Part shown: positions 3,951 through 24,743 of the stretch, piece by piece | Position numbering within the stretch: position 1 is the first letter of the stretch | How the letters are laid out: each line of letters starts with the position of its first letter | NCBI GenBank assembly: GCA_020348445.1 | Contig: CP070751.1 | Location: forward strand, 4,956,303 to 5,020,302 | Length of the DNA: 64,000 bases | Direction of reading: 5' to 3' | Origin: Thermoplasmata archaeon | Lineage (GTDB): Archaea; Thermoplasmatota; Thermoplasmata; GCA-020350865 | Translations under genes and position numbers: made by a program | Notes under the pieces: model-generated | The model's input: only the letters and a program-made list of their open reading frames with translations | Databases searched by the model: none | Told to the model about the DNA's origin: nothing

Positions 3951-4450
3951 ATGAAGGATGTAGCCAGGGAATCCTTCAGAGTTCTGAAACCGGACCACTT
4001 CTGCGCGATTCTCATAGGAGACACCAGGAGGAACCTGCACTATGTGCCTGTTGCGTTTAGGACTCTCCAGTCTTTCTTGGAGGTTGGGTTTATTCTGAGA
4101 GAGGACATTATAAAACATCAGTGGCAGTGCAAATACTGATATAATATCCGCCGAGGGAGCAGGTGCAAGCGAGTTTCTTTTTGACCCATTTTTTTCTTTG
4201 GAGCTTGCACCATGGTGGCGGATAGAATTTGAACGAATATTATGCCTATCCTCCACTATGTAGTGGAAAACATATTTAGTATCATGAGCAATGTTTTCCA
4301 CAACAGCGGACCGAGGCGTAAAGAAAAAAACGGTGGGTGAAGAAGTCCATGGAGAGCAACTTTTTGATGATTATGCATGAACATCTGTTTGTGTTTCGTA
4401 AGCCAAAAGAAGGAGAAAAAACCAAGAAATTTAAAGAAAGTATGGCTTGA
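3951..4450 (+). pseudogene. 5'-truncated, multiply frameshifted C-terminal remnant of a DNA (N4/N6) methyltransferase
   Basis: Frame 1 gives 'ESFRVLKPDHFCAILIGD...', paralleling 'EMYRVLKNGKYCVIVIGN' in the intact methyltransferase at 45141-46481. After stops and frame changes, a third frame ends 'MHEHLFVFRKPKEGEKTKKFKESMA*' (4367-4450), compare 'ENILIFRKQV*' in the intact gene. No FxGxG or SPPY motifs are found upstream. Confidence 0.6.
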
Positions 4451-4517
4451 AAAGCATATTTCCCCTACGACATATACCGAAAAGCATATATATAACCTTT
4501 TTGTATTTTGTCATCAT

Positions 4518-5450
4518 ATGAAATTAAATAAAAATCAAATAAAGATACTTCGGCTGCTATCGGAGAAAGGATACGGGAGTGTAAGCTCTCTTGCAAAAGT
4601 CCTCAAGCTCAGCCCCTCTCGAACAGATGTACTTCTAAAAGATCTACAGGATCTGGGGCTGGTGGAAATGAAAAGAAGCGGCAAGGCCGTTGAGGTTCAC
4701 ACGAGCATAAACAAACATGCCAAGGCATTTAGAAGATTGGTCACATTAAATCCCCATCTAAGGTACGAGACAATTTTGACAAATCAAAGAATCAATATCT
4801 TGATATCGCTTCTAAGATCCCCAATGACGAAGGGTGATATCTCCTTGGAATTGGATGTGTCTGAAAGGACCATCGAACGTGCACTCTCCTCCTTGATGGA
4901 AAACGGAATTATAATTTCTGAGGGGAGAGCGTTGAAAATCAATCCTCAACATTATGATCTTATGGAGTTTATAAGGGAATTCATCTCGTATGTGAACGTT
5001 AAAATCGCAGGTTCAGAGACGATCATAATCTGGGAATATTTGGATGAATTCATAGTAGAGACGAAAGGGCCTTTGAAACGGCCTGGATTTCTTCTCACGG
5101 GATTTCAGGCACTTGAAGATTTTGGTGTTCCTTTGATCGTAGGTGATTCAAGGCAGTACCTTTACTCTCCTCATAAAATCATCCTAAGGGTAGAGGATGT
5201 GTGTCTACATATAATGATGATAAATCCTCGGAGTATACGGGCCATAACCTACATTGTAATGGCGACTTTGAAGAATAAAGAAATTTGGAATTGGGGATAC
5301 ATGGAATCGGAATCAAAAACATATAATGTTGAGAAAATGATCCGTAGGCTGAAAAAGTTCATCAAGACAAAAGGTAAGGAGAAACCCGAAGATTTTCCAT
5401 CCTGGAAGGAAATAAAAGAGAAAGCAAAAGAGTATGGTATTCATGGCTAG
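4518..5450 (+). CDS. Double winged-helix regulator with C-terminal domain (AbiEi-like antitoxin candidate)
   Basis: Two wHTH-like segments: 'ILRLLSEKGYGSVSSLAKVLKLSPSRTDVLLKDLQDLGLVE' and 'ILISLLRSPMTKGDISLELDVSERTIERALSSLMENGII'. The ATG at 4518 is preferred, because the longer ORF from 4377 runs through the methyltransferase remnant. Overlaps the downstream nucleotidyltransferase gene. Confidence 0.55.
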   Translation: MKLNKNQIKILRLLSEKGYGSVSSLAKVLKLSPSRTDVLLKDLQDLGLVEMKRSGKAVEVHTSINKHAKAFRRLVTLNPHLRYETILTNQRINILISLLRSPMTKGDISLELDVSERTIERALSSLMENGIIISEGRALKINPQHYDLMEFIREFISYVNVKIAGSETIIIWEYLDEFIVETKGPLKRPGFLLTGFQALEDFGVPLIVGDSRQYLYSPHKIILRVEDVCLHIMMINPRSIRAITYIVMATLKNKEIWNWGYMESESKTYNVEKMIRRLKKFIKTKGKEKPEDFPSWKEIKEKAKEYGIHG

Positions 5451-6279
5451 ACGGAAATTCAATTTAAAATACATAGAGAACGAATTAAAGAATATAGGAA
5501 AACGTATTCCAAAGAAGGTAAAAGTAGTTCTGATTGGCGGTGCCAATATGATGTACCGCGGTCTTAAAGCGGCAACCAAAGATGTAGATCTAGTGATCAT
5601 GGATCCCAATGATCTGAAGTTGTTCTCAGAAGCTCTATTTGACTTGGGCTATTTTGAAGTAAAACATCTTTCTAAGGAATATACCAATCTTGGTGCATCT
5701 TCAGTAATGCGAAATGAAGATGGATTTCAATATGACATCTTCTACAAACAGGTGTGCAATGCACTTATCATAACTCCGAGAATAATAAAGAGGGCAGAAA
5801 AATTTGGTCAATTTAAAAACCTAACTGTTTCGTTAATGTCCCCTGAGGACGTGTTCCTTTTTAAAGGGATCACAGAAAGATCAGCAGATTTAGAAGACAT
5901 GAGAATCCTTGTGGAGCAAGGATTGGACTGGGAAATAATATTGGATGAATGCCAAAAACAGGAAGGGGAAAGAATATGGGAAGCTTTTTTACATCTGAAA
6001 TTAGAAGAACTTCAAGATAAATACAGAATCCGTACACCAATAACGGGGAAATTAAGACAAATATCCGAGTATAGACTTTTGAGGGATATGATTACATCAT
6101 TTCTTGGTGATGAAAGAACATACAAGGAGCTATCGGATTATATCCAAGAAAAATTGCATTGTTCTGATTCCTGGATCAGAAAACATATCTCAACCATGTT
6201 AAAGGAAGGCTTAATCCAGAGAAAGAGACATGGTAGGACTTTCATTTACTACCGTGAAAATCCCATAAAAAAAGATTAA
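5434..6279 (+). CDS. Minimal nucleotidyltransferase-fold protein with C-terminal wHTH (AbiEii/DUF6036-like toxin candidate)
   Basis: 'VVLIGGANMMYRGLKAATKDVDLVI' fits the G[GS]-x(9-13)-D-x-D nucleotidyltransferase motif. 'PEDVFLFKGITERSADLEDM' is also typical of this fold. The C-terminus 'YKELSDYIQEKLHCSDSWIRKHISTMLKEGLIQRKRHGR' looks like a wHTH. 8-17 nt overlap with the upstream gene. Confidence 0.5.
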   Translation: MVFMARRKFNLKYIENELKNIGKRIPKKVKVVLIGGANMMYRGLKAATKDVDLVIMDPNDLKLFSEALFDLGYFEVKHLSKEYTNLGASSVMRNEDGFQYDIFYKQVCNALIITPRIIKRAEKFGQFKNLTVSLMSPEDVFLFKGITERSADLEDMRILVEQGLDWEIILDECQKQEGERIWEAFLHLKLEELQDKYRIRTPITGKLRQISEYRLLRDMITSFLGDERTYKELSDYIQEKLHCSDSWIRKHISTMLKEGLIQRKRHGRTFIYYRENPIKKD

Positions 6280-6441
6280 GCAGAAAATAAGATTATATCA
6301 CAACCTGGTCCTTCCCTAAAAGGGGTAACTGGGCAACTGAGCCCCAGAAATCCCCAGAAACATCATACTCAGATATTCAGAGCCAGGCAATCTCGTTTTG
6401 GATCAGATGTGCGGCTCCAAGCACCAGAATAAAGCCCTAGC

Positions 6442-7764
6442 CTAGCTGCGGCCTAAAAGCCATTTCCATAAGGGGATGTACTCTATATTCTTGCCCTTGA
6501 CTCTCTCCTTTTCTTCGTAATCCCATGTGATGATCTTAAGCTTTTTACATCCCAATTCATCACTTGCTTTGATCAAAGCCGAAGTTTCCCTCGCCTTTGT
6601 TGTGTAGTCCTCGATATCGTAGCATACCTGGACAAGCTCCATTACTCTTTCCCCTTTCTTTACTATGAAATCCACTTCCTTACCACCTGCGTCCTTCCAG
6701 TAAAAGAACTCAAGCAAAGGCGATGCGGATCTTCTTCTGAGCAGTTCTATTGCCACTGTATTTTCCATAAGCCGCCCTATGTTCTGAGAAAATCTTACTC
6801 CCATCTGGGCTGCATATCCATTATCTATCTGGTAGACCTTTGGAAGACTCTGTTCCATCTTCCTAATGGAATGGCTGAACCTCCGAACCGCAATCACAGC
6901 AAAGGCATCCTCATAGTGCTGAAAATATTCATAGAGGGTGTTTTTGCTCACCGCAATTCCCTGGGATTTGAGAAAGTTATAGAATTTATGGACTGAGAAT
7001 TCTTTTGAGAAAGAACTGTGAATAGCACCAAACAGCATTCGCAAAACCTTGATGTTTTTCACTTTGTGTCTTTCTACCACATCCCTCATCAGCAATACTT
7101 CGACATATTCTTTTAGCGTCCTCACCTTCGAGTCCTCATTTTCGTCTAATACGACCTCTGGAAATCCACCAAACTTCACAAACTCATTAAGATATTTCAT
7201 TATCCATGTCCTTTTTTCAGATGACAGATGTTTTTCCAATTCCGTGCCTTTAGCCCTTAAAAACTCGGGAAAGGAGAAGGGTAAAATCACAAAAGATGTC
7301 GCTCGACCTCTCATGGTTGTGGCGATTTCCTTTGCCAAAAGTTTCGAAGAGGACCCGGTGATGTAAACCTGCACGTTCTCATTATCAAGTACTCTCCTTA
7401 CAAACAGCTCCCACTTGTCTACGTTCTGGATCTCATCTAGGAACAAGTAAAGTGTCTTTTTGCGGTTTTGAGGGTAGATTTCATAATAGGTGTCAAGAAG
7501 TCGTCCTAGGCCATCCAAATTGAGGGGCAGTAATCTATCATCTTCTAGGTTCACATAGAGCATTTCAGTCCGATTGACATTTCTCAATCTCAGCATGTTA
7601 TTAAAAAGAAAATAGGTCTTTCCTGCCCGTCTTGGACCTATAATAGTGATAGCCTTCTTTGTAGATGGTGGTTTCAAAGAAAGATCCCTATCTATAAGAT
7701 CGGGTAGAGACCTTTCATGAAAATCCTTTATCAGTTCTACAGCTATATCCTTCTTCACGAGCAT
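6442..7764 (-). CDS. AAA+ ATPase, COG1373/DUF4143-type
   Basis: Walker A 'GPRRAGKTY', Walker B 'LFLDEIQ'; about 440 aa with the C-terminal region typical of this archaeal ATPase family. Confidence 0.75.
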   Translation of the reverse strand: MLVKKDIAVELIKDFHERSLPDLIDRDLSLKPPSTKKAITIIGPRRAGKTYFLFNNMLRLRNVNRTEMLYVNLEDDRLLPLNLDGLGRLLDTYYEIYPQNRKKTLYLFLDEIQNVDKWELFVRRVLDNENVQVYITGSSSKLLAKEIATTMRGRATSFVILPFSFPEFLRAKGTELEKHLSSEKRTWIMKYLNEFVKFGGFPEVVLDENEDSKVRTLKEYVEVLLMRDVVERHKVKNIKVLRMLFGAIHSSFSKEFSVHKFYNFLKSQGIAVSKNTLYEYFQHYEDAFAVIAVRRFSHSIRKMEQSLPKVYQIDNGYAAQMGVRFSQNIGRLMENTVAIELLRRRSASPLLEFFYWKDAGGKEVDFIVKKGERVMELVQVCYDIEDYTTKARETSALIKASDELGCKKLKIITWDYEEKERVKGKNIEYIPLWKWLLGRS

Positions 7765-7928
7765 AGTGTATAGGGAAACTATTTATAAATGTTTCCTTCC
7801 ATATAATACTGCTAGAACATTATAACTTTATATATTTTTTAATCTAAAACACCTTAATTTTGTTCACTTATATACTACAGACTTCACTTTTATAATTCCA
7901 ACCTTTAATGTACACATAATAGGGTGAT

Positions 7929-7967
7929 GGGGAGAAAACCAAGAAACTTAAAGAAAGCATGGCTTGA
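7929..7967 (+). repeat. Methyltransferase 3'-end repeat, copy 2
   Basis: 'GATGGGGAGAAAACCAAGAAACTTAAAGAAAGCATGGCTTGA' translates to 'DGEKTKKLKESMA*'. This is near-identical to 4411-4450 ('EGEKTKKFKESMA*'). Confidence 0.7.
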
Positions 7968-8115
7968 TTTTTGGCTATACCCTTTAAAAATTAGGGTGTT
8001 TTCTAAAATCCCAAATCCGGGCGCTATCTCCAGCAAATTGTATTGGAAATATGAGTGATAAACTGCCAAATCCAAGAACCAAATTCGTGTAATTAAATGA
8101 GAATTTCTAATACTG

Positions 8116-9381
8116 TTAGGCTTTCCTTCTTATTATGGATGGATTCAAAAGAAGTTTCCAGGCGGGCACGAAGATCACAAGACCGTGCTCTGTTTTCATC
8201 CTCTCCTCCCTGTTCTTGGATATCACGAATCCAAATTTGGTGTTGAACTTTCTCATAAACTCCGAAAGGCCCTTCAAATCGGATCTTATTATCTTATCTT
8301 GATATTTCACTTCCAAAGAAATTCCGTCTACAACGGCGTCAACCTCTCGCCTGTTCCTCCAGAAGGCCTGGGTACCAACCGTATTTATCACTGCATTTTC
8401 AACCATTCTCCCTAAAAACGCATCGTCGATTTGGGGTTTGAATGCAGAGATTATCCCGCAATCCAATAGATAGGCTTTCTTGTTCTTTCTAAGCGAAGCG
8501 GTACCTTTTCTGTAATTACCCACGAGCCTTATAAGGAAACTCTCTTTCAACCACATGACATACTCTTTTATGGTCCTTCTGTCACTATCAAATTGCTCAG
8601 CGAGCGACTGATAGCTAAGATCCATACCTGGATTTATTGCCATTGCCGCAAGAAGTTGATGAAGCAGCTCGACATTTCTTATTCCCGAGATCGTAGGAAC
8701 GTCCTTATAGACTATTTTATCAATTACACTGGATCTGATGTACCTTGCCACCTCTTTCATATTTGTCTCATTGACCATCTCAGGAAATCCGCCTTTATTT
8801 ACATATTCCATGAACATGGGCTTTATCCTGGGTGCATAGGGTTTCGGTTTGATTCCTTTTAAATCCAGAAATTCCGAAAATGATAGTGTAGGCAGATAAA
8901 ATTCATGGATTCGTCCTGCCAATGTTTCTTTGGATAGTTTCCCCACGAACAGGCTCTCAGATCCGCTGATTACGAATTTTAATTTTGGATAGAGATCGTA
9001 GTACTTCTTTATCTGATTCTCCCAGTCCTTTAATTTCTGCACCTCGTCCATAAAAAGATATATCCTCTCTTTTCTGAGATTTATGGCATGTATTTCCCTG
9101 TAAGTGTCTATCACATCATCCAATCCCTCAACCATTTCGTCAAAAGAAAAGTAAACGATATTTTGCGCTTTTGTTTCTTCCTTCAGTAAATTGTCTATCA
9201 CTTGATACATGATCGTTGTCTTTCCTGTTCTCCTCAAACCCGTAATTGAAAGTATGTGGCGTTTTTTAACGTTCTTGACAACAGATGAAAAAAGATGCCT
9301 CTTATAATCCATTAAAAGATCCCTGGGGGCCTCCTCAGTATACCACCATTCATTGAACTCTTCAAGAATCTCTTTCCTCAT
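8116..9381 (-). CDS. AAA+ ATPase, COG1373/DUF4143-type (paralogue of 6442-7764)
   Basis: Walker A 'GLRRTGKTT', Walker B 'LFMDEVQ'; same length class and layout as the neighbour. Confidence 0.75.
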   Translation of the reverse strand: MRKEILEEFNEWWYTEEAPRDLLMDYKRHLFSSVVKNVKKRHILSITGLRRTGKTTIMYQVIDNLLKEETKAQNIVYFSFDEMVEGLDDVIDTYREIHAINLRKERIYLFMDEVQKLKDWENQIKKYYDLYPKLKFVISGSESLFVGKLSKETLAGRIHEFYLPTLSFSEFLDLKGIKPKPYAPRIKPMFMEYVNKGGFPEMVNETNMKEVARYIRSSVIDKIVYKDVPTISGIRNVELLHQLLAAMAINPGMDLSYQSLAEQFDSDRRTIKEYVMWLKESFLIRLVGNYRKGTASLRKNKKAYLLDCGIISAFKPQIDDAFLGRMVENAVINTVGTQAFWRNRREVDAVVDGISLEVKYQDKIIRSDLKGLSEFMRKFNTKFGFVISKNREERMKTEHGLVIFVPAWKLLLNPSIIRRKA

Positions 9382-9605
9382 AGATGTACAGTATGATGTA
9401 CATATATTTAACTTTTATGTACATTATAATGGACGATTAAAACCTTTGCAGAAGGTTTTATCTTTGAGGAATATGGTATTTTTAAACCTTTTCTAGCTTA
9501 TATGTTTTTGTAGTTAATATATAACTAACCTATAACTATCTCTACTCCCCACTCATATTATGATCGGCTGTGGCCCAGCTAATAATAGTTTTTCTAAAAA
9601 AATGT

Positions 9606-10403
9606 TCAATTCACATACTCCAAGGTCCACACATCAGTCACTCCAGTATAGTGGATCCAAAGACCCTGCCCGGGTCGTAATAGGTTGAGGTTGTCAGAGG
9701 TGTAAGAACCAGGGTCCCAGCTTTCCCATAAACCAGAACTCGCATTGTACCACATAACCATGTCCACGTCCACAGGTAAACCTGAGGAATCTGGCGGTCT
9801 CTCTATCAAGGATGGATAACCAACGAAGTTCCAACCATAATTTAACGTGATCTTGTTGACATATCCGGTTTCAGGGCCAGTGCCATCGACATATAATGTA
9901 GTTCCCAATGGATTGGTTATGTGAATCCATAACCCCATGTGTTTGTCAACATCTGTTAAATCGTTTAGCGAGGATGGTTTCTTAATATGATAGTGTTTCC
10001 AGGGGTCAACTGGATCGGCGATATCAAACCACTGCACTGTGTCATAATCTCCTGATATGTTCTCCAATGCCTTTCCAAGATTCGTTTCGGTCCGATTTAG
10101 AGGCAAAGAAATCATATTCCAGCCTAGCTCTAAATCTATGGGAAATTTCGTCGTGAAGGTAAAATCTCTGCTTATACTATAATTTATAGAATCATTGTAT
10201 GAGGTGATTCTGAAGTGATACAGTCTACCCGGTTCAAGATCGATCAGGTTATAACTATGAAGGATTTTCATGTTGTTGTCCTGAAATGTGAAGCCGTAAG
10301 CTGTGGTCAAACCATACTCGAGAGTGCTATTAGCGGGTCTATTGCTTCTCCATATAATGGTTGCCTTTGTATCTGTGATGTCATGCACTTGAATATTAAA
10401 GAT
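9606..10403 (-). repeat. Conserved FN3 + C-terminal-domain cassette, copy A
   Basis: The 3' 800 nt are homologous at nucleotide and protein level to 14369-15166, 17337-18134 and 22508-23305. All four end in '...GLW[IV]HYTG.TDVW[ST]LEYVN*'. Confidence 0.85.
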
Positions 10404-12818
10404 TATCAACGGAAATGTAGTGAAATAAATATCAAGGCCATTCTCTCGAGGATCCTGCCAGACGAGAAAGATGTTACCAATTGGGTCAACTGCGATATCT
10501 GGTTGACGTTGGTGTAATTCCTCTATGTCATTGTTGACCCTTTTATTGATAGAGAAGGTGTTTCCACCATCATTGGAATTGGCATAATAGATATCAGTAT
10601 CGGTAAAACCGTTTCTGTTATCTTCCCAGGCGATATAAATGTTACCTACACCCTCTGCTGCAATAGATGGATAGTATTGCCATACAGAGGAACCATCGTC
10701 ATTGACCTTTTTATTGGCAGAGAAGGTGTTGCCACCATCAGCAGAGTTTGCGAAATAGATATCAGAATCGCCGTTTCGCTCATCGTACCAAGCAATATAA
10801 ACATTGCCAGCACTGTCAACTGCTAATGAGGGATTACGTTGCTGTTCTGAACCAACATCGTCATTGACCTTTTTGTTAGGAGAAAATGTGTTTCCACCGT
10901 CAGTAGAATTCGCAAAATAAATATCAGAATTGCCATTTCGAGAATCCCTCCATGCGATATAGATCTCCCCCATATCCAATGCTGTAATAGATGAATCACT
11001 ATGTGAAGCTCCGGCAAGATCGTCATTGATCTTTTTATTTGGAGAAAAAGTGTTTCCGCCGTTAGTGGAATTCGTAAAATAGATATCCCAATTACCGCTT
11101 CGATGATCGGACCAGGTGATATAGATATAACCTGAATTATCAACTGTTATAGAGGGGGAATCTTGCCATTCCCCTATACCATCATCATTGACAATTTTAT
11201 TGGTTGAAAAAGTATTTCCCCAGTCACTAGAATTAGCAAAGTAGATATCTGTATCACCATTTCGCCAATCGTACCACACGATATAGACGTTACCGATATT
11301 ATCCACTGCAATACATGGACCTGCCTGCTCGAAAGCCCCAACATCATCATTTATTTTTTTATTTACTGAGAAGTTGCTCCCACCAGAGGTTGAGCATGCA
11401 AAATAGATGTCAGAATCACCATTTCGCTCATCCTGCCAAACTACATAGATATTGCCTGCATCATCCACAGCTATTGCGGATTCATATTGATATGCCTTTT
11501 TCAAATCGTCGTTTAGCTTTTTATTAGTTGAGAATGTATTTCCCTGGTCAGTTGAATTTGCAAAATAAATATCGTAATTGCCATTTCGATTATCCTGCCA
11601 GGTGATATAGATAGTCCCTGTATTGTCCAATGCCATAGTGACAGCATTTTGCGTTGTGCTACCAACATCGTCATTTACTCTTTTATTTACTGAAAAGGTG
11701 ACTCCATTATTGGTAGAATTGGCAAAATAGATATCTGGATTACTGTTTCGCCGATCATCCCATGTGATATAGATGTTACCTACTGTATCAATTGCTACAA
11801 ACGGATCGTATTGAGATACCCCGCTTCCATCATCGTTGATCTTTTTATTTGATGAGAAGGTATTTCCGCCATCAGTAGAGTTGGCAAAATAGATGTCCCA
11901 GCTACCATCTCGATTATCCTCCCAAACAAGATAAATATTGTTAGCACCTTTTGCGCTTATATGTGAAGTGCTTTGCCCTGCTGCGATACCATCATCATTG
12001 ACCTTTTTATTGGGAGAAAAAATGTTTCCCCTATCAGTAGAATTCACAAAATAGATATCTGAATCACCGTTTCGAGTATCTGTCCAGGCAATGTAGATTT
12101 TGCCCGCATTATCCACAGTTATGGATGGTTCAAGTTGAAATGCCGAGCCCGCATCGTCATTTACCTTTTTATTGGGTGAAAAGGTGCTCCCGCCATCAGT
12201 AGAATTTGCAAAATAGATATCATCATCACCATTTCTTTTATCTGTCCATACAACGTAAATGTCCCCTGCATCGCTAACCGCTATGGATGGAAAGTCTTGA
12301 ATCGTTCCACCAACATCATCATCAATTCTTTTATTGACTGAGAATGTGTTTCCACTATCAATGGATTTAGCAAAATAAACGTCACGATCACCATTTCGTT
12401 CATCTATCCAGACAACATAGATATAGCCTGTATCATCTACTGCAATGGAGGGATTATACTGCGTGGTCTCACTCCCGTCGTCATTAATCTTCTTATTGGC
12501 TGAGAAAGTTATCCCCCCGTCGGTAGAGTTTGCAAAATATATGTCACTGTTACCGTTTCGATTATCATCCCATGCGATATATATGTTGGCTGCATCGTTT
12601 ACTGCTATGGAGGGGCCATATTGTGAGGCAGTACCAGGAACCATAACGATTTCATTGACCCTTACATTGGATCCAAATGGTAAATCTGCTTTCACTTGAA
12701 TAAAAAGATAGGAAATCAGCAGTATAGCTGTTAAGATAGCATGCACTTTCAAGAAATTTCGCACTTCTCGATATTTTTTAAAGAAGTAATATGGTGCTGT
12801 CCTCATATTTTCCTCCAT
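9606..12818 (-). CDS. Secreted/surface protein: N-terminal signal anchor, about 14 BNR/Asp-box propeller blades, FN3, conserved 183-aa C-terminal domain
   Basis: About 13.5 tandem 52-aa units, each with 'DIYFANSTDGGNTFS' (Asp-box S-x-D-x-G-x-T-F/W). Then FN3-like 'IQVHDITDTKATIIWRSNRPANSTLEYG...GRLYHFRITSYN'. Then the C-terminal domain shared with 14369, 17337 and 22508. Confidence 0.8.
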   Translation of the reverse strand: MEENMRTAPYYFFKKYREVRNFLKVHAILTAILLISYLFIQVKADLPFGSNVRVNEIVMVPGTASQYGPSIAVNDAANIYIAWDDNRNGNSDIYFANSTDGGITFSANKKINDDGSETTQYNPSIAVDDTGYIYVVWIDERNGDRDVYFAKSIDSGNTFSVNKRIDDDVGGTIQDFPSIAVSDAGDIYVVWTDKRNGDDDIYFANSTDGGSTFSPNKKVNDDAGSAFQLEPSITVDNAGKIYIAWTDTRNGDSDIYFVNSTDRGNIFSPNKKVNDDGIAAGQSTSHISAKGANNIYLVWEDNRDGSWDIYFANSTDGGNTFSSNKKINDDGSGVSQYDPFVAIDTVGNIYITWDDRRNSNPDIYFANSTNNGVTFSVNKRVNDDVGSTTQNAVTMALDNTGTIYITWQDNRNGNYDIYFANSTDQGNTFSTNKKLNDDLKKAYQYESAIAVDDAGNIYVVWQDERNGDSDIYFACSTSGGSNFSVNKKINDDVGAFEQAGPCIAVDNIGNVYIVWYDWRNGDTDIYFANSSDWGNTFSTNKIVNDDGIGEWQDSPSITVDNSGYIYITWSDHRSGNWDIYFTNSTNGGNTFSPNKKINDDLAGASHSDSSITALDMGEIYIAWRDSRNGNSDIYFANSTDGGNTFSPNKKVNDDVGSEQQRNPSLAVDSAGNVYIAWYDERNGDSDIYFANSADGGNTFSANKKVNDDGSSVWQYYPSIAAEGVGNIYIAWEDNRNGFTDTDIYYANSNDGGNTFSINKRVNNDIEELHQRQPDIAVDPIGNIFLVWQDPRENGLDIYFTTFPLIIFNIQVHDITDTKATIIWRSNRPANSTLEYGLTTAYGFTFQDNNMKILHSYNLIDLEPGRLYHFRITSYNDSINYSISRDFTFTTKFPIDLELGWNMISLPLNRTETNLGKALENISGDYDTVQWFDIADPVDPWKHYHIKKPSSLNDLTDVDKHMGLWIHITNPLGTTLYVDGTGPETGYVNKITLNYGWNFVGYPSLIERPPDSSGLPVDVDMVMWYNASSGLWESWDPGSYTSDNLNLLRPGQGLWIHYTGVTDVWTLEYVN
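10496..12656 (-). repeat. Tandem coding repeats (156-nt BNR blade units, about 13.5 copies)
   Basis: I counted 14 occurrences of the D[IV]Y[FY] blade motif in the translation. Boundaries are approximate. Confidence 0.7.
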
Positions 12819-13102
12819 GATTGCTTATACATAGATTGGTTGAAATCATGTTTGATCCCCTATATAGCATTTCTCGTTTCATTGTAAACATTACCTTTTT
12901 ATTTGATTGCTACCCCTCCACCCTATGCTAATATTATTCCATACTCTAAAGAGAGGATTCAGGGGGATCTGAGGATATAACTTGTAAATGATTTGTATAT
13001 AATCTGCATTATATCCGTATTAATTTTTCACCTAATTGTGAAATTCTCTTATATATAAATGTCCCCATTGCACTTTCATAAATAATTACGGTGGTGAAAA
13101 AA

Positions 13103-13405
13103 ATGAAATATATGGTTTTTCATAGACATACTGCAGAAATGTGTCCGGGAGGAAGTGTAAGGCCCGATAAGGAGTTCGTAACGAAACTAAATGATCAGAT
13201 GCAAACCGACGGCGTTAAGTTAATTGAAGGCTACATGGATATACCAGGCCACGAGATGTACTTTATCATAGAAGCAGAGGATATTTCAAAACTGAATGCC
13301 GCAATTGAACAACTAAGGTTGGTTGGAGATACTAACAAAATTGTTCCCATAATGAACTTCTCTGATGCAGTAGCATATGCAAAGAAAATGGGATTACAAA
13401 AGTAA
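13103..13405 (+). CDS. Small hypothetical protein
   Basis: 100-aa ORF 'MKYMVFHRHTAEMCPGG...'. The ATG at 13103 is preferred over the upstream GTG. No family recognised with confidence. Confidence 0.4.
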   Translation: MKYMVFHRHTAEMCPGGSVRPDKEFVTKLNDQMQTDGVKLIEGYMDIPGHEMYFIIEAEDISKLNAAIEQLRLVGDTNKIVPIMNFSDAVAYAKKMGLQK

Positions 13406-13514
13406 TACATAAAGGTATGAGACTGGAGGTTTGAGCCTTGATTCTTCAGCCTCGCTTCCTCCAAACTCTGAAACACAGCCACATCCTCTTGAAAATTTTC
13501 AGAAGCCATGGGAA

Positions 13515-13553
13515 GGGGAGAAGATAAAGAAATATAAAGAGAGCATGTTATGA
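13515..13553 (+). repeat. Methyltransferase 3'-end repeat, copy 3
   Basis: Translates to '..ENFQKPWEGEKIKKYKESML*', compare copy 1 'VFRKPKEGEKTKKFKESMA*'. The stop codon sits at the same relative position. Confidence 0.6.
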
Positions 13554-13667
13554 ACAGTACACCGAGGGAGCAGGCTTAACCGAGTTACATTACTAGTCTT
13601 GCTTGTGGCGACAGTTTTTTATATTGTAATTGCGTATTACATTACGACGAAGAGGAAGGCAGATTAC

Positions 13668-14246: not shown

Positions 14247-14368
14247 ATTCTTTAAATTTTCCACCTATAAAGGTCTTAGCCTTTTTATAGGGGAAGATAA
14301 AATCTTCCACTAGTAGAGGAAGTGAAACTTCTCTCTTTAATCCCGTTAAAGTTTATTATTGTAGAAGT

Positions 14369-15166: not shown

Positions 15167-16444
15167 TCTGCATAAGGTTCTATTATCATATCGCTGTGCA
15201 AAAATTCCCTCTTCACTTCCATCCTGGTTTTTTGATTGCCATGCGATCACAAAATTGCCGTTGGGATCCATTCCTGTCGATGGCGCCCTCTGATCATTTG
15301 TTTTGTGGCTGTTCACTCGGAACTCCACATCCAGTGGATTACCACTATTGTCGAAGCGTTGTGCATAAATCCCGTAACCGCTTCCATCTTGCCCCTCTGA
15401 TTCCCATGCAATCACAAAGTTACTATTTGAATCAATGGCTACAGAAGGGAAATGTTGCCTGTTAGTTGTATAGGTGTTTACTTTGAATTCTCCTCCTACA
15501 GGCTCACCGATATCATTGTAACGTTGCGCGTAAACATTTTCGTAACTTCCACCTCCACTACCTACTCCGGCCCATACAATCACAAAATCGCCCAACGAGT
15601 TCCTGGCTACAGATGGGTAGTATTGATAGCTGGAAGTAAAGCTGTTCACTCGGAACTCTCCTTTTATAGGAATACCACCGCTGTCGTAGCATTGCGCATA
15701 GATCCCGTAACTAGATCCATCTTGCTCAACAGAGTGCCATGTAATAACAAAATTACCATTTGCGTCCATGGCTGCTGATGGATATTCTTGGTCATTTGCT
15801 GTATAGGTATTTACTTGAATCTCTGTTCCTATAGGATTTCCATCTTTATTGTAAAGCTGTGCATAAATTCCTTCCTCACTTCCATCCTGCAAATTCGATT
15901 CCCATGCAATCACGAAGTTGCCATTTGAGTCCATGGCCGCAGATGCTAATCGTTGATTATCTGTTGTGTAAGTGTTTACTCTAAACTCTCCCCCCTGAGG
16001 ATCACCACTGCTGTTGTAACGCTGTGCAAAAATTCCCCCTCCATCACCCGTTCCAGATCCCGACCAGGCAATCACAAAATGTCCTGTCGAGTTTATTGCC
16101 ACTGACGGCGCTGCCTGACCGCCTGCCGTATAAGTGTTTACTTGAAAATCTCCTCCTAAAGGATTTCCATTGCTATCGTATCGTTGTGCAAAAACACCCC
16201 AGTTGTTACCATCTTGTTGATATGAGTTCCATGCAATTATAAAGTTGCCCTCAGGGTCCATTGCTACTGAAGGTCGGGTTTGATATGACGTCGTGTATGT
16301 ATTCACCTGAAACTCTTCCCCTACAGGTTCACCTTCATTAGGTATGCTTAACATGAATGTAGAAAGTGTTATGCTTATTACCAGAACGGCAACAGGTATT
16401 ACTAGCGATTTTGTCCATTGGGTTCTACCTATCATTACTAACAT
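14369..16444 (-). CDS. Secreted/surface protein: signal anchor, 7-blade 'FxVNTYT' propeller repeats, FN3, conserved C-terminal domain (paralogue B)
   Basis: Seven about 48-aa repeats ('EFQVNTYTTSYQTRPSVAMDPEGNFIIAWNS..QDG...G[IV][FY]AQRYD..GNPLG'). The ATG at 16444 ('MLVMIGRTQ') aligns with the starts of paralogues C and D. The upstream GTG at 16474 is not conserved in frame. Confidence 0.8.
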   Translation of the reverse strand: MLVMIGRTQWTKSLVIPVAVLVISITLSTFMLSIPNEGEPVGEEFQVNTYTTSYQTRPSVAMDPEGNFIIAWNSYQQDGNNWGVFAQRYDSNGNPLGGDFQVNTYTAGGQAAPSVAINSTGHFVIAWSGSGTGDGGGIFAQRYNSSGDPQGGEFRVNTYTTDNQRLASAAMDSNGNFVIAWESNLQDGSEEGIYAQLYNKDGNPIGTEIQVNTYTANDQEYPSAAMDANGNFVITWHSVEQDGSSYGIYAQCYDSGGIPIKGEFRVNSFTSSYQYYPSVARNSLGDFVIVWAGVGSGGGSYENVYAQRYNDIGEPVGGEFKVNTYTTNRQHFPSVAIDSNSNFVIAWESEGQDGSGYGIYAQRFDNSGNPLDVEFRVNSHKTNDQRAPSTGMDPNGNFVIAWQSKNQDGSEEGIFAQRYDNRTLCRIFDIQVLDRTDTTAIITWKSNIRANSTIEYGFSPAYGSTIHNSSFVTTHSMKLDGLEPGRLYHFRVASYNNSTNYNISIDFVFTTKFAIDLELGWNMISLPLNQTDTNLGKVLENISGDYDAVQWFDITDFVDPWKHNHISKPTSLNDLTDIDKRMGLWIHITNPLGTTLYVPGTAPEIGYINQITLHNGWNLVGYPSLIERAPDSSDLPAEVDMVMWYNASSGLWESWDPGSYSLDNLNLLKPGQGLWIHYTGATDVWSLEYVN

Positions 16445-16474
16445 TTTACCCTTCAGTACCTCATTGAGATTCAC

Positions 16475-16552
16475 AAACCTAAAGTTTTCGGTCTACAGGG
16501 AACCTGAAGGGAAGGGGAGAATACCAAGAAATTTAGAGAACGTATGGTTTAA
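16475..16552 (+). repeat. Methyltransferase 3'-end repeat, copy 4 (also the upstream region of paralogue B)
   Basis: 'NLKFSVYREPEG' followed, after a frameshift, by 'REGENTKKFRERMV*'; compare 'EHLFVFRKPKEGEKTKKFKESMA*'. Confidence 0.6.
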
Positions 16553-16677
16553 TCATCCGATAACGATATTCACCATTCAAATTCATATTAATAGAGGAAC
16601 ACTTCACTGATCAAATAATACAACCGAAAGTTTTAATAGCATGTCTAAACATAAAGTTTATACAGGACGTATCTTAA

Positions 16678-17336: not shown

Positions 17337-18134
17337 TCAGTTCACATACTCCAAAGACCACACATCAGTTGTTCCAGTATAGTGAACCCAAAGGCCCTGC
17401 CCGGGTCTCAATAGATTAAGGTTGTCAGAGGAGTAAGAACCTGGATCCCAGCTTTCCCATAGACCCGAACTCGCATTGTACCACATAACCATATCCACTT
17501 CCGCAGGCAAACCCGAGGAGTCTGGCGGTCTCTCTATCAGAGATGGGTATCCAACTAGATTCCAGCCATTATGCAATGTGATCTTGTTGATATATCCGAT
17601 ATCAGGTGCAGTACCGTGAACATATAACGTAGTTCCCAAGGGATTGGTTATGTGAATCCATAATCCCAAGTGTTTGTCAATATCTGTTAAATCGTTTAGC
17701 GAGGATGGTTTTGAGATATGGTTGTGTTTCCAGGGATCAATTGGATCTGTGATATCAAAGCACTGCACAGCATCATAATCTCCTGATATGTTCACCAACA
17801 CCTTCCCAAGATGTGAATCGGTTTGGTTCAAAGGCAAAGAAATCATGTTCCAGCCTGGCTCCAAATCTATCCGATATTTCGTTGTGAATGTAAAATCAGA
17901 ACTTATGCTATAATTACCTGAATTATTGTATGAACTCACTCGAAAATGATAAAGCCTTCCAGGTTCAAGTCCTGTCAAATCCATTCGGTGAAAGATCAAT
18001 TTAGAATTGTTCCCAGTGGTTAAATCGTAGGTAGTAGAAAGACCGCATTCTATTGTACTGTTGGCGGGTTTACTGGTCTTCCAGGTTATGGTTGCATCAC
18101 TATCGGTAATGTCAAGCACTTGAATATCAGAGAT
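17337..18134 (-). repeat. Conserved FN3 + C-terminal-domain cassette, copy C
   Basis: See 9606-10403. Confidence 0.85.
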
Positions 18135-19409
18135 TTTAAATGGGATTATATTGTTATATCGTTGCGCATAAATGCCATAGCTGCTCCCATCCTGGTCTTT
18201 TGATTCCCATGAAATCACAAAGTTGCCATCTTCGTCCATCCCTATTGATGGAAAGTCCTGTACATCTGCCGTGTATGTATTCACTTTGAATTCATTTCCC
18301 AAGGGATTACCAACGCTATCGTATTGTTGTGCATAAATGCCATAATTACTCCCATCCTGTCCATATGATTCCCAAGTGATCACGAAGTTACCGCCTGAAT
18401 CCATCGCTACTGATGGACGTCTTTGGTAATTTGATATGTAGGTGTTTACTTGAAACTCCGGTCCCATGGGATTACCATTTCTATCATAGCGTTGCGCATA
18501 AACACCATATCCACCACCATCCTGTCCATTTGAATCCCATGCAATCACGAAATCACCCTCTGGGTCCATGGCTACAGAGGGCCGACATTGAACATCTTCT
18601 GTATGGGTGTTAACTAGAAACTCAGCACCCTCAGGGTTGCCATTGCTTTTATAACGTTTTGCATAAACTCCCCAGTTACTTCCATCTTGTCCATACGAGG
18701 ACCATGTCACCACGAAACTACCGGTGGAACTCATTGCTACTGACGATTCTCGTTGATCCTTTGTTATATATGAATTTACTCTAAACTCCCCTCCCAAGGG
18801 ATTTCCATTATTATCATAGCGCTGTGCATAAATACCATAACCATCGGTATCCTGATCATATGATTCCCATGTAATTACAAAATTGCCGTTTGAATCCATG
18901 GACACTGCGGGATTACATTGGGCATACGGTATACGTGTATTTACTCTAAACTCAGTTCCCTCAGGATTTCCATCTCTATCAAATCGTTGTGCATAAACGC
19001 CCCATCCATTTCCATCTTGTCCGGAGGATTCCCACGCGATCACGAAGTTCCCGCTCACATTCATTGCCACAGAAGACATCCATTGCGTATCTGTTGTGTA
19101 TGTATTAACTTGAAAATCTGTTCCAATAGGGCTTCCATTTCTTTCATAAAGTCGGGCATAAATGCCTTTAACATCACCAGCACCAGCTCCATGCCATGTA
19201 ACAACAAAACTGCCGGTGGAATTCATTGCTGTTGATGGCAAAAACTGGCCAGTGGTAGTATATTCGTTCACCCGAAACTCTCCTCCAACAGGTAGTCCTT
19301 CATTTTCAGTGCTAATTATGAATGTAAAAAATGTCATGCTGATTAAAATGGTACTAATCAATATTACAAGTAAATTTGTTTTCTGGGTTCGCCCTACCTT
19401 CACTATCAT
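17337..19409 (-). CDS. Secreted/surface protein, 7-blade 'FxVNTYT' propeller + FN3 + conserved C-terminal domain (paralogue C)
   Basis: Seven repeats counted (FRVNEYTTTGQ ... FKVNTYTADVQ). N-terminus 'MIVKVGRTQKT' plus a TM. Confidence 0.8.
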   Translation of the reverse strand: MIVKVGRTQKTNLLVILISTILISMTFFTFIISTENEGLPVGGEFRVNEYTTTGQFLPSTAMNSTGSFVVTWHGAGAGDVKGIYARLYERNGSPIGTDFQVNTYTTDTQWMSSVAMNVSGNFVIAWESSGQDGNGWGVYAQRFDRDGNPEGTEFRVNTRIPYAQCNPAVSMDSNGNFVITWESYDQDTDGYGIYAQRYDNNGNPLGGEFRVNSYITKDQRESSVAMSSTGSFVVTWSSYGQDGSNWGVYAKRYKSNGNPEGAEFLVNTHTEDVQCRPSVAMDPEGDFVIAWDSNGQDGGGYGVYAQRYDRNGNPMGPEFQVNTYISNYQRRPSVAMDSGGNFVITWESYGQDGSNYGIYAQQYDSVGNPLGNEFKVNTYTADVQDFPSIGMDEDGNFVISWESKDQDGSSYGIYAQRYNNIIPFKISDIQVLDITDSDATITWKTSKPANSTIECGLSTTYDLTTGNNSKLIFHRMDLTGLEPGRLYHFRVSSYNNSGNYSISSDFTFTTKYRIDLEPGWNMISLPLNQTDSHLGKVLVNISGDYDAVQCFDITDPIDPWKHNHISKPSSLNDLTDIDKHLGLWIHITNPLGTTLYVHGTAPDIGYINKITLHNGWNLVGYPSLIERPPDSSGLPAEVDMVMWYNASSGLWESWDPGSYSSDNLNLLRPGQGLWVHYTGTTDVWSLEYVN

Positions 19410-19439: not shown

Positions 19440-19536
19440 ATACCTATACTTTTCGGTGTTTAGATTATCAAATTATGGAGATGAATATTTTACCCCCGAT
19501 ACATTAAAATACAGAATATTATATTTATTCAGATAA
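19440..19536 (+). repeat. Degenerate methyltransferase 3'-end repeat, copy 5 (upstream region of paralogue C)
   Basis: 'CCTATACTTTTCGGTGTTTAG' matches 'CCTAAAGTTTTCGGT[CG]TACAG' at 16478 and 24659. It translates to 'YLYFSVFR...'. The remainder is poorly conserved. Confidence 0.35.
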
Positions 19537-19566
19537 GAACAATGACGATTAACAAAGAGGTTTTAC

Positions 19567-22507: not shown

Positions 22508-23305
22508 TCAGTTCACATATTCCAATGACCACACATCAGTTACTCCAGTATAATGAATCCAAAGACCCTGCCCTGGCTTTAATAGATTGAGATTATCAAG
22601 AGAATAGGAACCAGGATCCCAGCTTTCCCATATTCCCGAACTCGCATTGTACCACATAACCATGTCCACTTCTGCAGGCAAATCCGAGGAATCTGGCAGT
22701 CTTTTAAGAAGGGAAGGATAACCTACTAGATTCCAGCCATTATTTAACGTGATCTGGTTGACATATCCGATATCAGGTGCAGTGCCGTGGACATATAGGG
22801 TGGTTCCCAGGGGATTGGTTATGTGAATCCACAATCCCATGTGTTTGTCAGCGTCTGTTAAATCGTTTAGCGAGGATGGCTTTGAGGTATGATTGTGTTT
22901 CCAGGTATCGACAGAGTCGGTAGTATCAAACCACTGAACAGCGTTATAATTTCCCGATATGTTCTCCAACGCCTTCCCTAGATTAGTATCGGTCTGATTT
23001 AGAGGCAAAGAGATCAAGTTCCAGCCGGGCTCCAAATCTATTGAATATTTTGTAGTGAATGTAAAATCGGAACTTATGCTATAATTACCTGAATTATTGT
23101 ATGAACTCACTCGAAAATGATAAAGCCTTCCAGGTTCTAATCCCATCAAATTTATATTATGTGAGATCACTTTAGAACCGTCATAAATAGTTGAGCCATA
23201 TGCTGTGGAAAAACCGTATTCAACTGTGCTGTTAGATGGCATATTGCTTTTCCAGGATATTGTTGCCGTGATATCTGAAATTTCTTTTGCTCGAATATCG
23301 AAGAT
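22508..23305 (-). repeat. Conserved FN3 + C-terminal-domain cassette, copy D
   Basis: See 9606-10403. The 183-aa domain differs from copy B at 23 positions by my count. Confidence 0.85.
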
Positions 23306-24625
23306 TCCAAAAGGATTTGTCCCATCATAGCGTTGCGCATAAACTCCTGAGCCATGTCCATCATGATCCGGTCCCCATGATACCCATGCTATGATAAAAT
23401 TGCCGTTTGGATCTGTTGCTACAGAGGATATATATTGATTGTCTGTTGTGTGTGTATTCACCTGAAATTCTCCTCCAAATGGATTTGCATTGCTATCGTA
23501 TTTTTGTGCATAAACTCCCCAATCGCTTCCATCCTGATACTGTGATTCCCAGGTAATAATAAAGTTACCGTTTGAATCCATTGCTGCTGATGGAAACCGT
23601 TGATTATTTGGGGTATATGAATTCACTTGAAATTCCTCACCTATTGTATTGCCATTGTTATCATATCGCTGAGCATAAATTCCTTCGCCGCTTCCATCCT
23701 GACCTGACGAATCCCATGTAATCATGAAGTTACCGTTTGGATCCATAGCTGCCGATGGAAATTTTTGATCATTTGTTATGTATGTATTCACCTGAAACTC
23801 AACACCCAGAGGATTACCATTTTTATCATAACGTTGGGCAAAAATCCCATAACCATCACCGTCCTGCTCCTCAGATGTCCATACGATAACAAAGTTACCA
23901 TTTGAATCCATTGCTATTGATGGCCAAGCTTGCCCTGCGGTCGTGTAGGTATTCACCTGAAACTCTACACCCAGAGGATTGCCGTTGCTATCATAACGCT
24001 GTGCAAAAATCCCATAACTATCACCATCTTGGTCGTCTGATATCCATGTAATGACAAAGTTGCTATTCGAATCCATAGCTACCGAAGGAAACCATTGGTG
24101 GCCGGTTATGTATGTGTTCACCCTAAACTCTTCTCCTAGGGGATTTCCGCTATTATCGTAGCGCTGTGCATAAATCTCCCATTCATTTCCACCTTGCCCA
24201 TAGGATTGCCAAGTAATCACAAAGTCACCACTTGAGTTCATGGCTATGGAGTGGGTACTTTGACTACTAGTTGTGTAGGTGTTGATTCGAAATTCGTTAC
24301 CTTCCTCTCCCCCTCTTAAAGCGCCTGGAGGAGGGGTAAGTTCATTACCATTTGAATCGTATCGCTTGGCAAATATTCCCAACATATCACCATCTTGCCA
24401 TTGTGAAGACCAGGTAATTATAAAATTACCGTTAGAGTCCATAGCTGTTGATGGAAGAGATTGCTCATATGTTATGTAAGTATTCACTTGAAACTCCCCC
24501 CCTACAGGTTCTCCCCTATTTGTAATGGTTATCATGAATGTAGAAAGTGTTGTGATAATGAATAGAACAGCAATAGGTATTACCCACAATTTTGTTCTCT
24601 TGGTTCTACCTTCCTTTACTAACAT
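22508..24625 (-). CDS. Secreted/surface protein, 7-blade 'FxVNTYT' propeller + FN3 + conserved C-terminal domain (paralogue D)
   Basis: Seven repeats counted. The conserved start context 'GGGTAAAAATG' favours the ATG at 24625 ('MLVKEGRTK'); the ORF could extend to the ATG at 24646. Confidence 0.8.
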   Translation of the reverse strand: MLVKEGRTKRTKLWVIPIAVLFIITTLSTFMITITNRGEPVGGEFQVNTYITYEQSLPSTAMDSNGNFIITWSSQWQDGDMLGIFAKRYDSNGNELTPPPGALRGGEEGNEFRINTYTTSSQSTHSIAMNSSGDFVITWQSYGQGGNEWEIYAQRYDNSGNPLGEEFRVNTYITGHQWFPSVAMDSNSNFVITWISDDQDGDSYGIFAQRYDSNGNPLGVEFQVNTYTTAGQAWPSIAMDSNGNFVIVWTSEEQDGDGYGIFAQRYDKNGNPLGVEFQVNTYITNDQKFPSAAMDPNGNFMITWDSSGQDGSGEGIYAQRYDNNGNTIGEEFQVNSYTPNNQRFPSAAMDSNGNFIITWESQYQDGSDWGVYAQKYDSNANPFGGEFQVNTHTTDNQYISSVATDPNGNFIIAWVSWGPDHDGHGSGVYAQRYDGTNPFGIFDIRAKEISDITATISWKSNMPSNSTVEYGFSTAYGSTIYDGSKVISHNINLMGLEPGRLYHFRVSSYNNSGNYSISSDFTFTTKYSIDLEPGWNLISLPLNQTDTNLGKALENISGNYNAVQWFDTTDSVDTWKHNHTSKPSSLNDLTDADKHMGLWIHITNPLGTTLYVHGTAPDIGYVNQITLNNGWNLVGYPSLLKRLPDSSDLPAEVDMVMWYNASSGIWESWDPGSYSLDNLNLLKPGQGLWIHYTGVTDVWSLEYVN

Positions 24626-24655
24626 TTTTACCCTTCCATACCTCATCGAGATTCA

Positions 24656-24743
24656 TAACCTAAAGTTTTCGGTGTACAGTTATCTCTCTTCGGATTTTAT
24701 GGGATATCCCGGGGATATCCCCAAGAACCTTAATATTCGTTAA
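24656..24743 (+). repeat. Degenerate methyltransferase 3'-end repeat, copy 6 (upstream region of paralogue D)
   Basis: 'NLKFSVY' is identical to copy 4, and 'CCAAGAACCTTA' echoes 'CCAAGAAATTTA'. It ends in an in-frame stop at 24741-24743. Confidence 0.4.

Follow-up and report, generated by a model that had tools for sequence, protein, structure and literature searches.

Positions 3948 to 16553 of the 64-kb window analyzed here, a stretch of a Thermoplasmata archaeon genome with 42% G+C and archaeal housekeeping genes that include CysRS, thermosome, and RACo, are probably a decayed cassette array that arose by repeated recombination into the gene of a PF01555 (N4/N6) DNA methyltransferase (MTase). 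Seven pieces derived from such a gene, all on the plus strand, were found in the window by tblastn with a full-length relative and by nhmmer. We propose that small DNA units, each carrying the distal part of the MTase gene and one or a few cargo genes (toxin-antitoxin pairs, candidate defense ATPases, or surface proteins), recombined into the resident MTase gene. Each unit would have supplied a new 3' part and pushed the old one downstream with its orientation kept, and repetition would yield the series gene, cargo, truncated copy, cargo, truncated copy. Later insertions and deletions would have eroded the displaced copies, leaving the window with residues 204 to 264, 269 to 305, 48 to 102, 293 to 305, 158 to 191, 289 to 305, and 292 to 305 of the enzyme. 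The units may have moved as circular or otherwise mobile cassettes, recombined either by a site-specific enzyme acting in trans or through homology. What is observed directly is that the fragments exist and share an orientation, that they diverge as coding sequence does, that the architecture recurs, that the cassettes are polymorphic, and that the junctions cluster; the proposal builds on these observations.

The most conspicuous pieces are four direct 42-nt repeats (family D18) on the plus strand at 4409 to 4450 (the reference, c0), 7926 to 7967 (c1, 88%), 13512 to 13553 (c2, 74%), and 16511 to 16552 (c3, 83%). These tails share a reading frame and a terminal stop codon, preceded by EGEKTKKFKESMA, DGEKTKKLKESMA, EGEKIKKYKESML, and EGENTKKFRERMV, respectively. 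The full 39-nt repeat pattern had no match in 100 shuffles, and a DNA profile of related MTase genes (nhmmer) detected c0 to c3 with E values of 1e−30, 1e−4, 5e−7, and 3e−3. The repeat family and the profile thus bear out the original prediction, made from the letters of the window, that plus-strand copies of about 38 nt with a stop codon lie at 7929 to 7967, 13515 to 13553, and 16514 to 16552. Its reading of 3951 to 4450 as a decayed methyltransferase gene also held: 3951 to 4133 joined to 4334 to 4447 matches PF01555 (E = 2.7e−7; 31.2 bits, cut-off 26.7; Pfam).

The copies differ from one another in the manner of coding sequences. Fourteen of the 23 differences between the tails and c0 fall at codon position 3 (binomial p = 0.006). 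The fragment at 3951 to 4133 differs from its relative in L008 (L numbers label the compared loci or contigs that carry MTase relatives) at 7, 1, and 27 sites in codon positions 1, 2, and 3 (27 of 35 at the third), and the fragment at 6332 to 6418 differs from its relatives at 0, 0, and 9 (9 of 9 at the third). This excess indicates that the copies diverged as parts of working genes and not in place as noncoding DNA, which rules out a noncoding repeat such as a promoter module. The original prediction had raised such a module as an alternative, with the repeat read on the minus strand (CTTTAAATTTCTT) and duplicated along with minus-strand genes. The minus strand of the tails does contain TATA-like A/T-rich hexamers, and c3 lies about 40 to 80 nt upstream of the start of the propeller B gene and c1 about 160 nt upstream of an ATPase start. 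However, in many genomes the coding end of the MTase gene is a homolog of the repeat, which keeps its frame and stop and varies at third positions. There is no minus-strand gene behind c0, and the minus-strand open reading frame (ORF) behind c2 overlaps a conserved DUF3303 gene and so is probably spurious, leaving two of the four copies without a credible minus-strand gene. The minus-strand genes beside c1 and c3 are unrelated to each other, and the propeller paralogs have a leader motif of their own; copy C has no tail, and in copy D any trace of one is marginal at best. We consider a promoter origin scarcely credible.

Two further, degenerate copies had been claimed at 19440 to 19536 and 24656 to 24743; the MTase profile (nhmmer) detected neither. 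The sequence CCTAAAGTTTTCGGTNTACAG, shared by 16478 to 16498 and 24659 to 24679, does not derive from the MTase; it is a 5' leader that is conserved among the paralogous propeller genes. At about 24710 to 24733 (GGGGATATCCCCAAGAACCTTAA) there may be a tail in a very decayed state, but it is marginal, scoring at only the 95th percentile of random windows, and upstream of propeller C the score equals the null mean. Hence, of the five blocks into which the repeats were thought to divide the region, MTase-derived repeats delimit only blocks 1 to 3, and no supported repeat bounds blocks 4 and 5.

The source of the repeats is a widespread gene. The pseudogene at 3951 to 4450 has 342 homologous database proteins, many of them named DNA methylase, and the top six of these are 78 to 86% identical across 93 to 100% of its length; full-length relatives are 80 to 84% identical. 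A full-length relative (L004, 7670 to 8602; 311 aa) has the order N-terminal W-FP-RG-WATH, FxGxG, HPPY, and an end ...HEHLFVFRKP followed by about 15 residues, and the window repeat is therefore the extreme C terminus of the enzyme. Both PF01555 motifs are present in the window, PPPY in 12870 to 12971 and the start of DQMCGSG, cut after CGS, in 6332 to 6418. Since the catalytic and S-adenosylmethionine motifs sit in separate fragments, the window holds no intact copy. The 120 best of the 342 protein matches all have lengths of 66 to 164 aa and are drawn from many phyla. Some are fragments at contig edges; others are internal to long contigs, suggesting that pieces of the gene, broken or displaced, are frequent far outside the lineages studied here.

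The architecture recurs in related archaea. We surveyed one genome per species and then the 80 best loci of 571 MTase relatives, which span archaea and Dehalococcoidia; most of the 80 are single-copy. On at least 20 independent contigs, copies without the 5' end follow an intact or near-intact MTase gene on the same strand, with cargo in between. Such arrays occur in Methanoperedens (L026, L029, L030, L039, L055, L056, L067, and L073), at Thermoplasmata-type loci (L007, L008, L010, and L017), and on metagenome contigs (L001, L004, L093, L095, and L126), and an intact target gene stands at the array end in L067, L030, L010, L047, and L095. The Methanoperedens array L067 reads intact MTase, AbiEi-AbiEii, residues 46 to 305, MNT plus HEPN, residues 225 to 305, ParE, residues 44 to 305, DUF5615, residues 40 to 305, and then housekeeping genes. 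In the other arrays, the pooled 56 ORFs between copies include DUF4258/DUF2283, MNT, HicA, ParE, PIN/VapB, MqsA, DUF433/DUF5615, RelE-like proteins, and a ThaI-like restriction gene (Pfam), and toxin-antitoxin families dominate this census. Such enrichment in addiction modules would be expected if units without them were lost via recombination between the flanking direct repeats.

One unit of the window is shared with two of the metagenome contigs. Positions 4374 to 6417 are collinear with L126 1757 to 3828 (82%) and L093 1 to 1893 (85%), in the common order MTase end, an element of about 100 to 200 nt, a second tail, a winged-helix gene, a nucleotidyltransferase gene, and an MTase copy that begins near residue 47 to 55. 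The junction between this copy and the upstream cargo, on the 6297 side in the window, is shared with L093 and L126, where the copy is continuous from a start at about residue 47 to 51; in L093 it extends to residue 305, while its window counterpart ends at 102. The original prediction proposed a check on whether blocks are present or absent as units in relatives. Methanoperedens loci do vary in this way, and the lineage of the window does so in part, with this unit shared with L093 and L126 and a DUF3303 cassette shared with L001. Contig L093 itself (Ga0209536_100169812; 2748 nt) is a circular permutation of the unit helix-turn-helix gene, nucleotidyltransferase gene, MTase (residues 47 to 305), element, and tail, and in window coordinates its two ends, at 4514 and 4553, are separated by 39 nt. 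Either a tandem repeat or an excised circle left open by the assembler could account for it.

The Methanoperedens loci contain 1, 3, or 5 units, with shared flanks and differing unit order. In L030, copy 1, its upstream region, and 580 nt of the flank downstream correspond to the only unit of L021 (84.5%); copy 2 and its flank match L034 (89.7%), with homology from about codon 34; and copy 3 matches L036 (89.9%). Beyond the L030 array, the chromosome is 93 to 94% identical to that of L034 and of L036. In L067 versus L055, the units with ParE and MNT-HEPN stand in reversed order (91% and 94.6% identity). The junctions, moreover, are clustered. In Methanoperedens, eight truncated copies are preceded by unrelated DNA, and their starts all fall no more than about 15 nt from the point where AA(A/T)TTCGCC meets CCCTCCACC (codon ~42), and the core of the L030- and L067-like arrays is AATTCGCCCCC. 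Two strongly diverged N-terminal "platform" types of about 40 codons meet a near-identical MTase body at this same point, with a sharp boundary. The single-copy loci L031, L035, L036, and L034 retain 16 to 18 nt of the site (GGAATTTCGCCCCCGCCG) as a remnant where the cassette region ends on its far side, just ahead of the conserved gene that lies downstream, and L021 has a similar remnant. The Thermoplasmata-type junction of L093 and L126 lies at the codon equivalent to the Methanoperedens site; the window junction is more eroded. Unit polymorphism, clustered starts, the N-terminal boundary, and the site remnants argue for recombination at a defined site over random duplication and deletion. 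There look to be two preferred junctions, one near codon 42 to 47 and one near codon 277 to 283, the latter with a structured element of about 95 nt past the stop codon.

An explanation in which the MTase gene is not targeted at all is local tandem duplication by unequal crossing-over, combined with unrelated insertions and random deletions. Copies within an array are 88 to 93% identical, often about as close to each other as to copies in other genomes, and the junctions of the window tails c1 to c3 show no shared motif. Two MTase pieces in L126 have one insertion of about 97 nt in common (92% identity), so that some duplication in place did occur; together with the identity within arrays, this means that local duplication or gene conversion also acts. 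As an account of the whole, however, local duplication is unlikely. It is at odds with the correspondence of each L030 unit, MTase part and flank, to the single unit of a different genome, with the varying unit order, with the start of truncated copies at one site of about 15 nt, and with the sharp boundary between the diverged 40 N-terminal codons and a gene body that is homogenized across genomes. The strong bias of the cargo to addiction and defense modules also speaks against it.

Several observations weigh against repeated recombination into the MTase gene. Besides the high identity within arrays and the lack of a motif at the window junctions, cargo genes lie on both strands. The third copy of L030 lies exactly at the remnant site and not inside the gene, and it is the first copy of L067, not the last, that has the flank of the single-copy locus L036, which misfits strict newest-first growth. 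Pfam scans of about 60 ORFs, nearly all of those in the 64 kb, revealed no integrase, transposase, or other recombinase, and 66 array ORFs of 20 other loci and the upstream neighbors of nine arrays gave none either, with one exception: an insertion sequence transposase upstream of L067 is the sole mobility gene. In view of these searches, we infer, rather than observe, the mechanism of recombination. A collection of 2.9 million viral contigs contains essentially no member of the MTase family and thus yielded no vector. No circular intermediate was seen, and at 99% identity the source sample supports only the arrangement in the window, a comparison of contigs only in which rare forms fall below detection. 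Much of the original proposal of tandem accretion nevertheless stands: the coding-type divergence of the tails, recurrence, unit variation, and clustered junctions all indicate that displaced MTase 3' ends mark the repeated insertion of foreign blocks. No integrase was found in the window or beside the arrays examined, and the last two blocks are not delimited by MTase repeats.

Other candidates were examined and set aside. Given the absence of the family from the viral collection, a viral origin of the arrays was rejected. Alternative joints in the source metagenome were numerous at 85% likeness and had all gone at 99%, so they represent cross-mapping of paralogous MTase copies. A tRNA or tmRNA gene as the target of the array was likewise rejected, as ARAGORN found none in the window and the only tRNA match in Rfam, a borderline one at 46530 to 46595, is far from the array. 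In the source sample, contig depth at 3967 to 4433 is about 98, versus about 28 in neighboring sequence (about 3.5-fold, at ≥99% identity), which shows that near-identical copies of the MTase end and element exist elsewhere in the genome or community.

The element itself lies directly 3' of the MTase stop codon and is about 95 nt long (L008, 11016 to 11110; L017, 3779 to 3890; L093, 2510 to 2607; L126, 1609 to 1755), with a counterpart in the window at 4134 to 4333. It consists of CCGAGGGAGCAGG, a variable stem, GAGTTTCTTTTTGACCCATTTTTTTCTTTGGAG, the stem complement, and CAGCGGACYGAGGCGTAAAGAAAAAAACGGTG, and its flanks are conserved. Its stems covary, with compensatory changes in 10 of 18 predicted pairs, counted in five sequences only (RNAalifold), and its U-rich loop is complementary to a downstream A-tract, the two changing together in L093. 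Rfam has no family that matches the element, even at E ≤ 10. The 13-mer CCGAGGGAGCAGG occurs in the window only at 4151 and 13562. The element could be a terminator, a structure in the 3' untranslated region, a small RNA, or a recombination site.

Behind the element stands a second MTase tail, which the right end of the element meets at codon 282/283 in four genomes. Despite the preceding stop codon, 111 of 186 pairwise differences between these second tails fall at position 3 across five genomes. Two readings are possible: repeated insertion at one 3'-end site may have displaced the resident tail, or conversion from working copies may be ongoing. In two independent cases, cargo has broken the element by insertion, at 13588 in the window and at about 7285 in L008, and the two breaks lie no more than 5 nt apart in the element. 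In the window, c2 is followed by a truncated element and c3 resembles the second tail of L093; therefore, c2 and c3 were probably a single tail pair whose intervening element received an insertion of the zinc-ribbon and propeller B genes.

The coding character of the second tails would also suit a silent-copy reservoir, in which the 5'-truncated copies serve as gene-conversion donors that alter the expressed MTase and the cargo is incidental. The arrays do have one complete copy followed by same-strand copies without a promoter or 5' end, and the gene body is homogenized across genomes past a fixed boundary. We nonetheless judge this quite improbable. The copies resemble one another closely in protein sequence and show no obvious variable domain, many contain frameshifts, large internal deletions, or insertions resembling miniature inverted-repeat transposable elements (MITEs), and in the window nothing intact is left to convert. 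A reservoir also leaves the unrelated cargo between every pair of copies unexplained.

The leftmost fragment of the array, at 3948 to 4134 (+), covers residues ~204 to 264 of the ~305-aa PF01555 enzyme (85% identity to the L004 MTase by tblastn; nhmmer E = 2.6e−57). Its 5' truncation falls exactly where synteny with L088 and L090 (window 32 to 3955) stops. Because the left end of the array coincides with this break, the array is truncated and most likely inert: the leftmost copy lacks residues 1 to 203 and is interrupted, so that no intact, regenerated target gene is present. Next come the structured element (4134 to 4333, +, by alignment to relatives), with an extra insert of about 100 nt at ~4204 to 4303 that the copies at loose ends of contigs in the source sample lack, and tail c0 (4334 to 4450, +), which comprises residues 269 to 305 and the stop (95% aa identity, tblastn; nhmmer as above) and is of the type found after the post-stop element in relatives ("tail2").

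The first cargo (4518 to 6279, +) consists of a double winged-helix protein (4518 to 5450) and a DUF6036/DUF2204 nucleotidyltransferase (5434 to 6279; Pfam), an AbiE/MNT-like toxin-antitoxin pair. It is followed at 6297 to 6418 (+) by residues ~48 to 102 (WSFPKRGNWA ... DQMCGS), disrupted by a slip deletion and an in-frame stop (tblastn 6300 to 6418, residues 55 to 102; nhmmer E = 2.4e−26). This fragment is 90% identical to L008 and L007 and is the start of the next, displaced MTase copy. An AAA_14/DUF4143 ATPase gene, the candidate defense gene PDC-S01 (6442 to 7764, −; Pfam; PADLOC E = 3.5e−107), occupies the place expected for residues ~103 to 292 of the displaced copy, and the equivalent copy in L093 is continuous. 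Tail c1 (7923 to 7967, +; residues ~293 to 305 and the stop; tblastn 7923 to 7961) is probably the end of the copy that begins at 6297.

A second PDC-S01-type ATPase gene (8116 to 9381; PADLOC E = 1.7e−66) and the gene of a 1070-aa BNR/propeller surface protein (9606 to 12818) make up the next cargo (8116 to 12818, −; Pfam). The following MTase fragment, at 12870 to 12971 (+), covers residues 158 to 191 with the catalytic PPY motif (...ATPPPYANIIPYSKERIQGDL; tblastn; nhmmer E = 1.4e−15). Between it and tail c2, to which it appears to belong, lies the DUF3303 gene (13091 to 13405, +; Pfam E = 4.5e−8); window 12961 to 13453 is 90% identical to L001 11484 to 11980, where the DUF3303 cassette stands in a different array context. 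Tail c2 consists of residues ~289 to 305 and the stop (13496 to 13553, +; tblastn 13497 to 13556, residues 289 to 308) and is followed by about 35 nt of the element (13554 to 13588, CCGAGGGAGCAGG...GAGTT). Window 13518 to 13577 is 87% identical to L008 7219 to 7278, and homology breaks beyond 13588. The third cargo (13599 to 16474; Pfam) has genes for a zinc-ribbon protein (13599 to 14246, +) and propeller B (14369 to 16474, −), and the array ends with tail c3 (16486 to 16553, +; residues 292 to 305), which resembles the L093 tail after the element (EGENTKKYKESMV and a stop).

The same-strand pieces at 6297 to 6418 and 12870 to 12971 and the post-stop element had been overlooked in the original prediction. 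With them, the tails become the eroded ends of at least three MTase copies and not minimal att sites. The suggestion that the last ~38 nt of the gene served as an att-like target thus does not hold as such, as the displaced copies are long at first, reaching to the stop from about codon 45 or about codon 282, and erode later. With no intact copy and the leftmost one cut at a rearrangement breakpoint, the array in the window is probably inactive. Among relatives with the same flank, no truly empty site was found for it: L088 to L091 have a matching ABC-transporter flank (87%) and carotenoid genes in the place of the array, which the window lacks, so the locus is rearranged. One of these contigs (L088, Ga0115863_1002561) has a lone MTase fragment (1459 to 1728, residues 217 to 306) about 8 kb from the ABC-transporter flank that it shares with the window (87%), on the other side of the carotenoid gene cluster.

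Integron arrays have a fixed platform and small cassettes that can be reordered, and chromosomal integrons are rich in toxin-antitoxin cassettes. The MTase arrays resemble them in their platform with a variable series of cassettes, in their enrichment in addiction modules, which would protect an array from deletion between repeats, and, at Thermoplasmata-type loci, in the structured element at unit ends. Unlike integrons, they have no IntI beside the platform and no recognized attC consensus in the element despite its covarying stems; their cargo lies on both strands with its own signals, and each unit holds a large piece of the platform gene. We tentatively raise the possibility, itself doubtful, of an integron-like cassette-capture platform on this MTase gene in Methanoperedens and the Thermoplasmata lineage, in which a recombinase encoded elsewhere would act near codon 42 to 47, and perhaps at the element, to insert, excise, and reshuffle 1- to 5-kb units of a distal MTase part and a toxin-antitoxin or defense gene; the window would then be a dead example. 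Orphan toxin-immunity modules lie downstream of rhs and cdiA, and pilE/pilS comprises an expressed gene and silent copies. As in those systems, 5'-truncated copies that retain a conserved stretch for recombination follow a full-length gene on the same strand, each with a small gene, and the displaced ends collect downstream. However, the C-terminal parts are the variable, functional payload in rhs/cdiA and pilE/pilS, whereas the MTase arrays have conserved MTase parts and carry as payload the unrelated genes that lie between these parts.

Two kinds of described arrays come close. In island arrays at the 3' ends of tRNA and tmRNA genes, a displaced target fragment marks the island boundary (PMC4383910), and thaumarchaeal elements occupy the 3'-distal portions of protein genes, with tandem integrations (PMC6563490). 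As in these tandem arrays, the inserted DNA restores the gene end, and same-orientation repeats separate the blocks; repeats of the target 3' end flank inserted blocks in the window at the four tails, with the c2/c3 pair around the zinc-ribbon and propeller B genes and the start of the element beside c2. Tandem islands, however, have a tyrosine integrase (or Cas1 in casposons) within or beside them and short att cores. We found no recombinase for the MTase array, and its units are only about 1 to 5 kb, with a duplicated target of up to nearly the whole gene (~780 nt). An MTase is not among the targets that those surveys list. Furuta, Abe, and Kobayashi (2010; PMC2853133) described restriction-modification units flanked by target duplications of 30 to 420 bp, with no mobility gene, and proposed a cycle of insertion, amplification via the repeats, and release; theirs were single insertions at varied bacterial targets, and no archaeal case passed their screen. 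The MTase arrays share addiction-type units, long target duplication, and the lack of mobility genes with those insertions but differ from them in that one gene was hit repeatedly, junctions cluster, and cargo is mostly of the toxin-antitoxin or defense type. The window cargo is not a restriction-modification pair; one related array has the ThaI-like restriction gene and a second MTase, and a ThaI-like partner suggests CGCG as the specificity of the enzyme. Full-text literature searching found no description of methyltransferase-fragment arrays, and a paper on ANME-1 hotspots mentions structural variants with toxin-antitoxin and MTase genes but not this architecture. Hence, the MTase array is, in the literature searched, a new variant of tandem accretion.

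If our proposal is correct, a conserved MTase gene is a recurrent docking site through which large-genome archaea acquire, retain, and trade small modules for addiction and defense, with no recognizable mobile-element gene involved. It would provide a testable route for the turnover of defense islands and toxin-antitoxin modules in uncultured archaea, including the methane-oxidizing Methanoperedens, and would explain the short lengths of the 120 best protein matches and the frequent assembly breaks at these loci. In annotation, such MTase fragments would be better read as cassette-boundary markers than as genes.

Displaced copies at other loci are broken in further ways. In Methanoperedens (L029, 2480 to 2800; L026, 5140 to 5500; L056, 1463 to 1604) they contain many short palindromic insertions (e.g., CACGTATGGCACGCTTGCCATACGTG), which look like MITEs or repetitive extragenic palindromes and of which several lie at one codon (~67). 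At L004 5656 to 6422, in three samples, one MTase copy is split into ORFs of 152 and 103 aa with an ATGA overlap, at the residue (MKDVA...) where the window fragment begins; upstream, beyond a multicopper oxidase gene, is a separate MTase piece (residues 1 to 71), and residues 53 to 71 are duplicated.

Elsewhere in the window, a second PF01555 MTase of 446 aa is intact at 45141 to 46481 (−). It has the same motif order as the array enzyme and was rejected as the source of the fragments, being only ~33% identical, on the opposite strand, and different at its end. Beside it lies the borderline tRNA at 46530 to 46595 (+; Rfam, 29.4 bits versus a cut-off of 29; no ARAGORN call). The four paralogous surface proteins, all encoded on the minus strand (9606 to 12818, 14369 to 16474, 17337 to 19409, and 22508 to 24646), have fn3 domains and internal repeats of 162 to 165 nt (54 to 55 aa). 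The last ~300 nt of their genes are 80 to 86% identical across all four, and propellers B, C, and D share the 5' leader; C and D lie outside the MTase-delimited part of the window.

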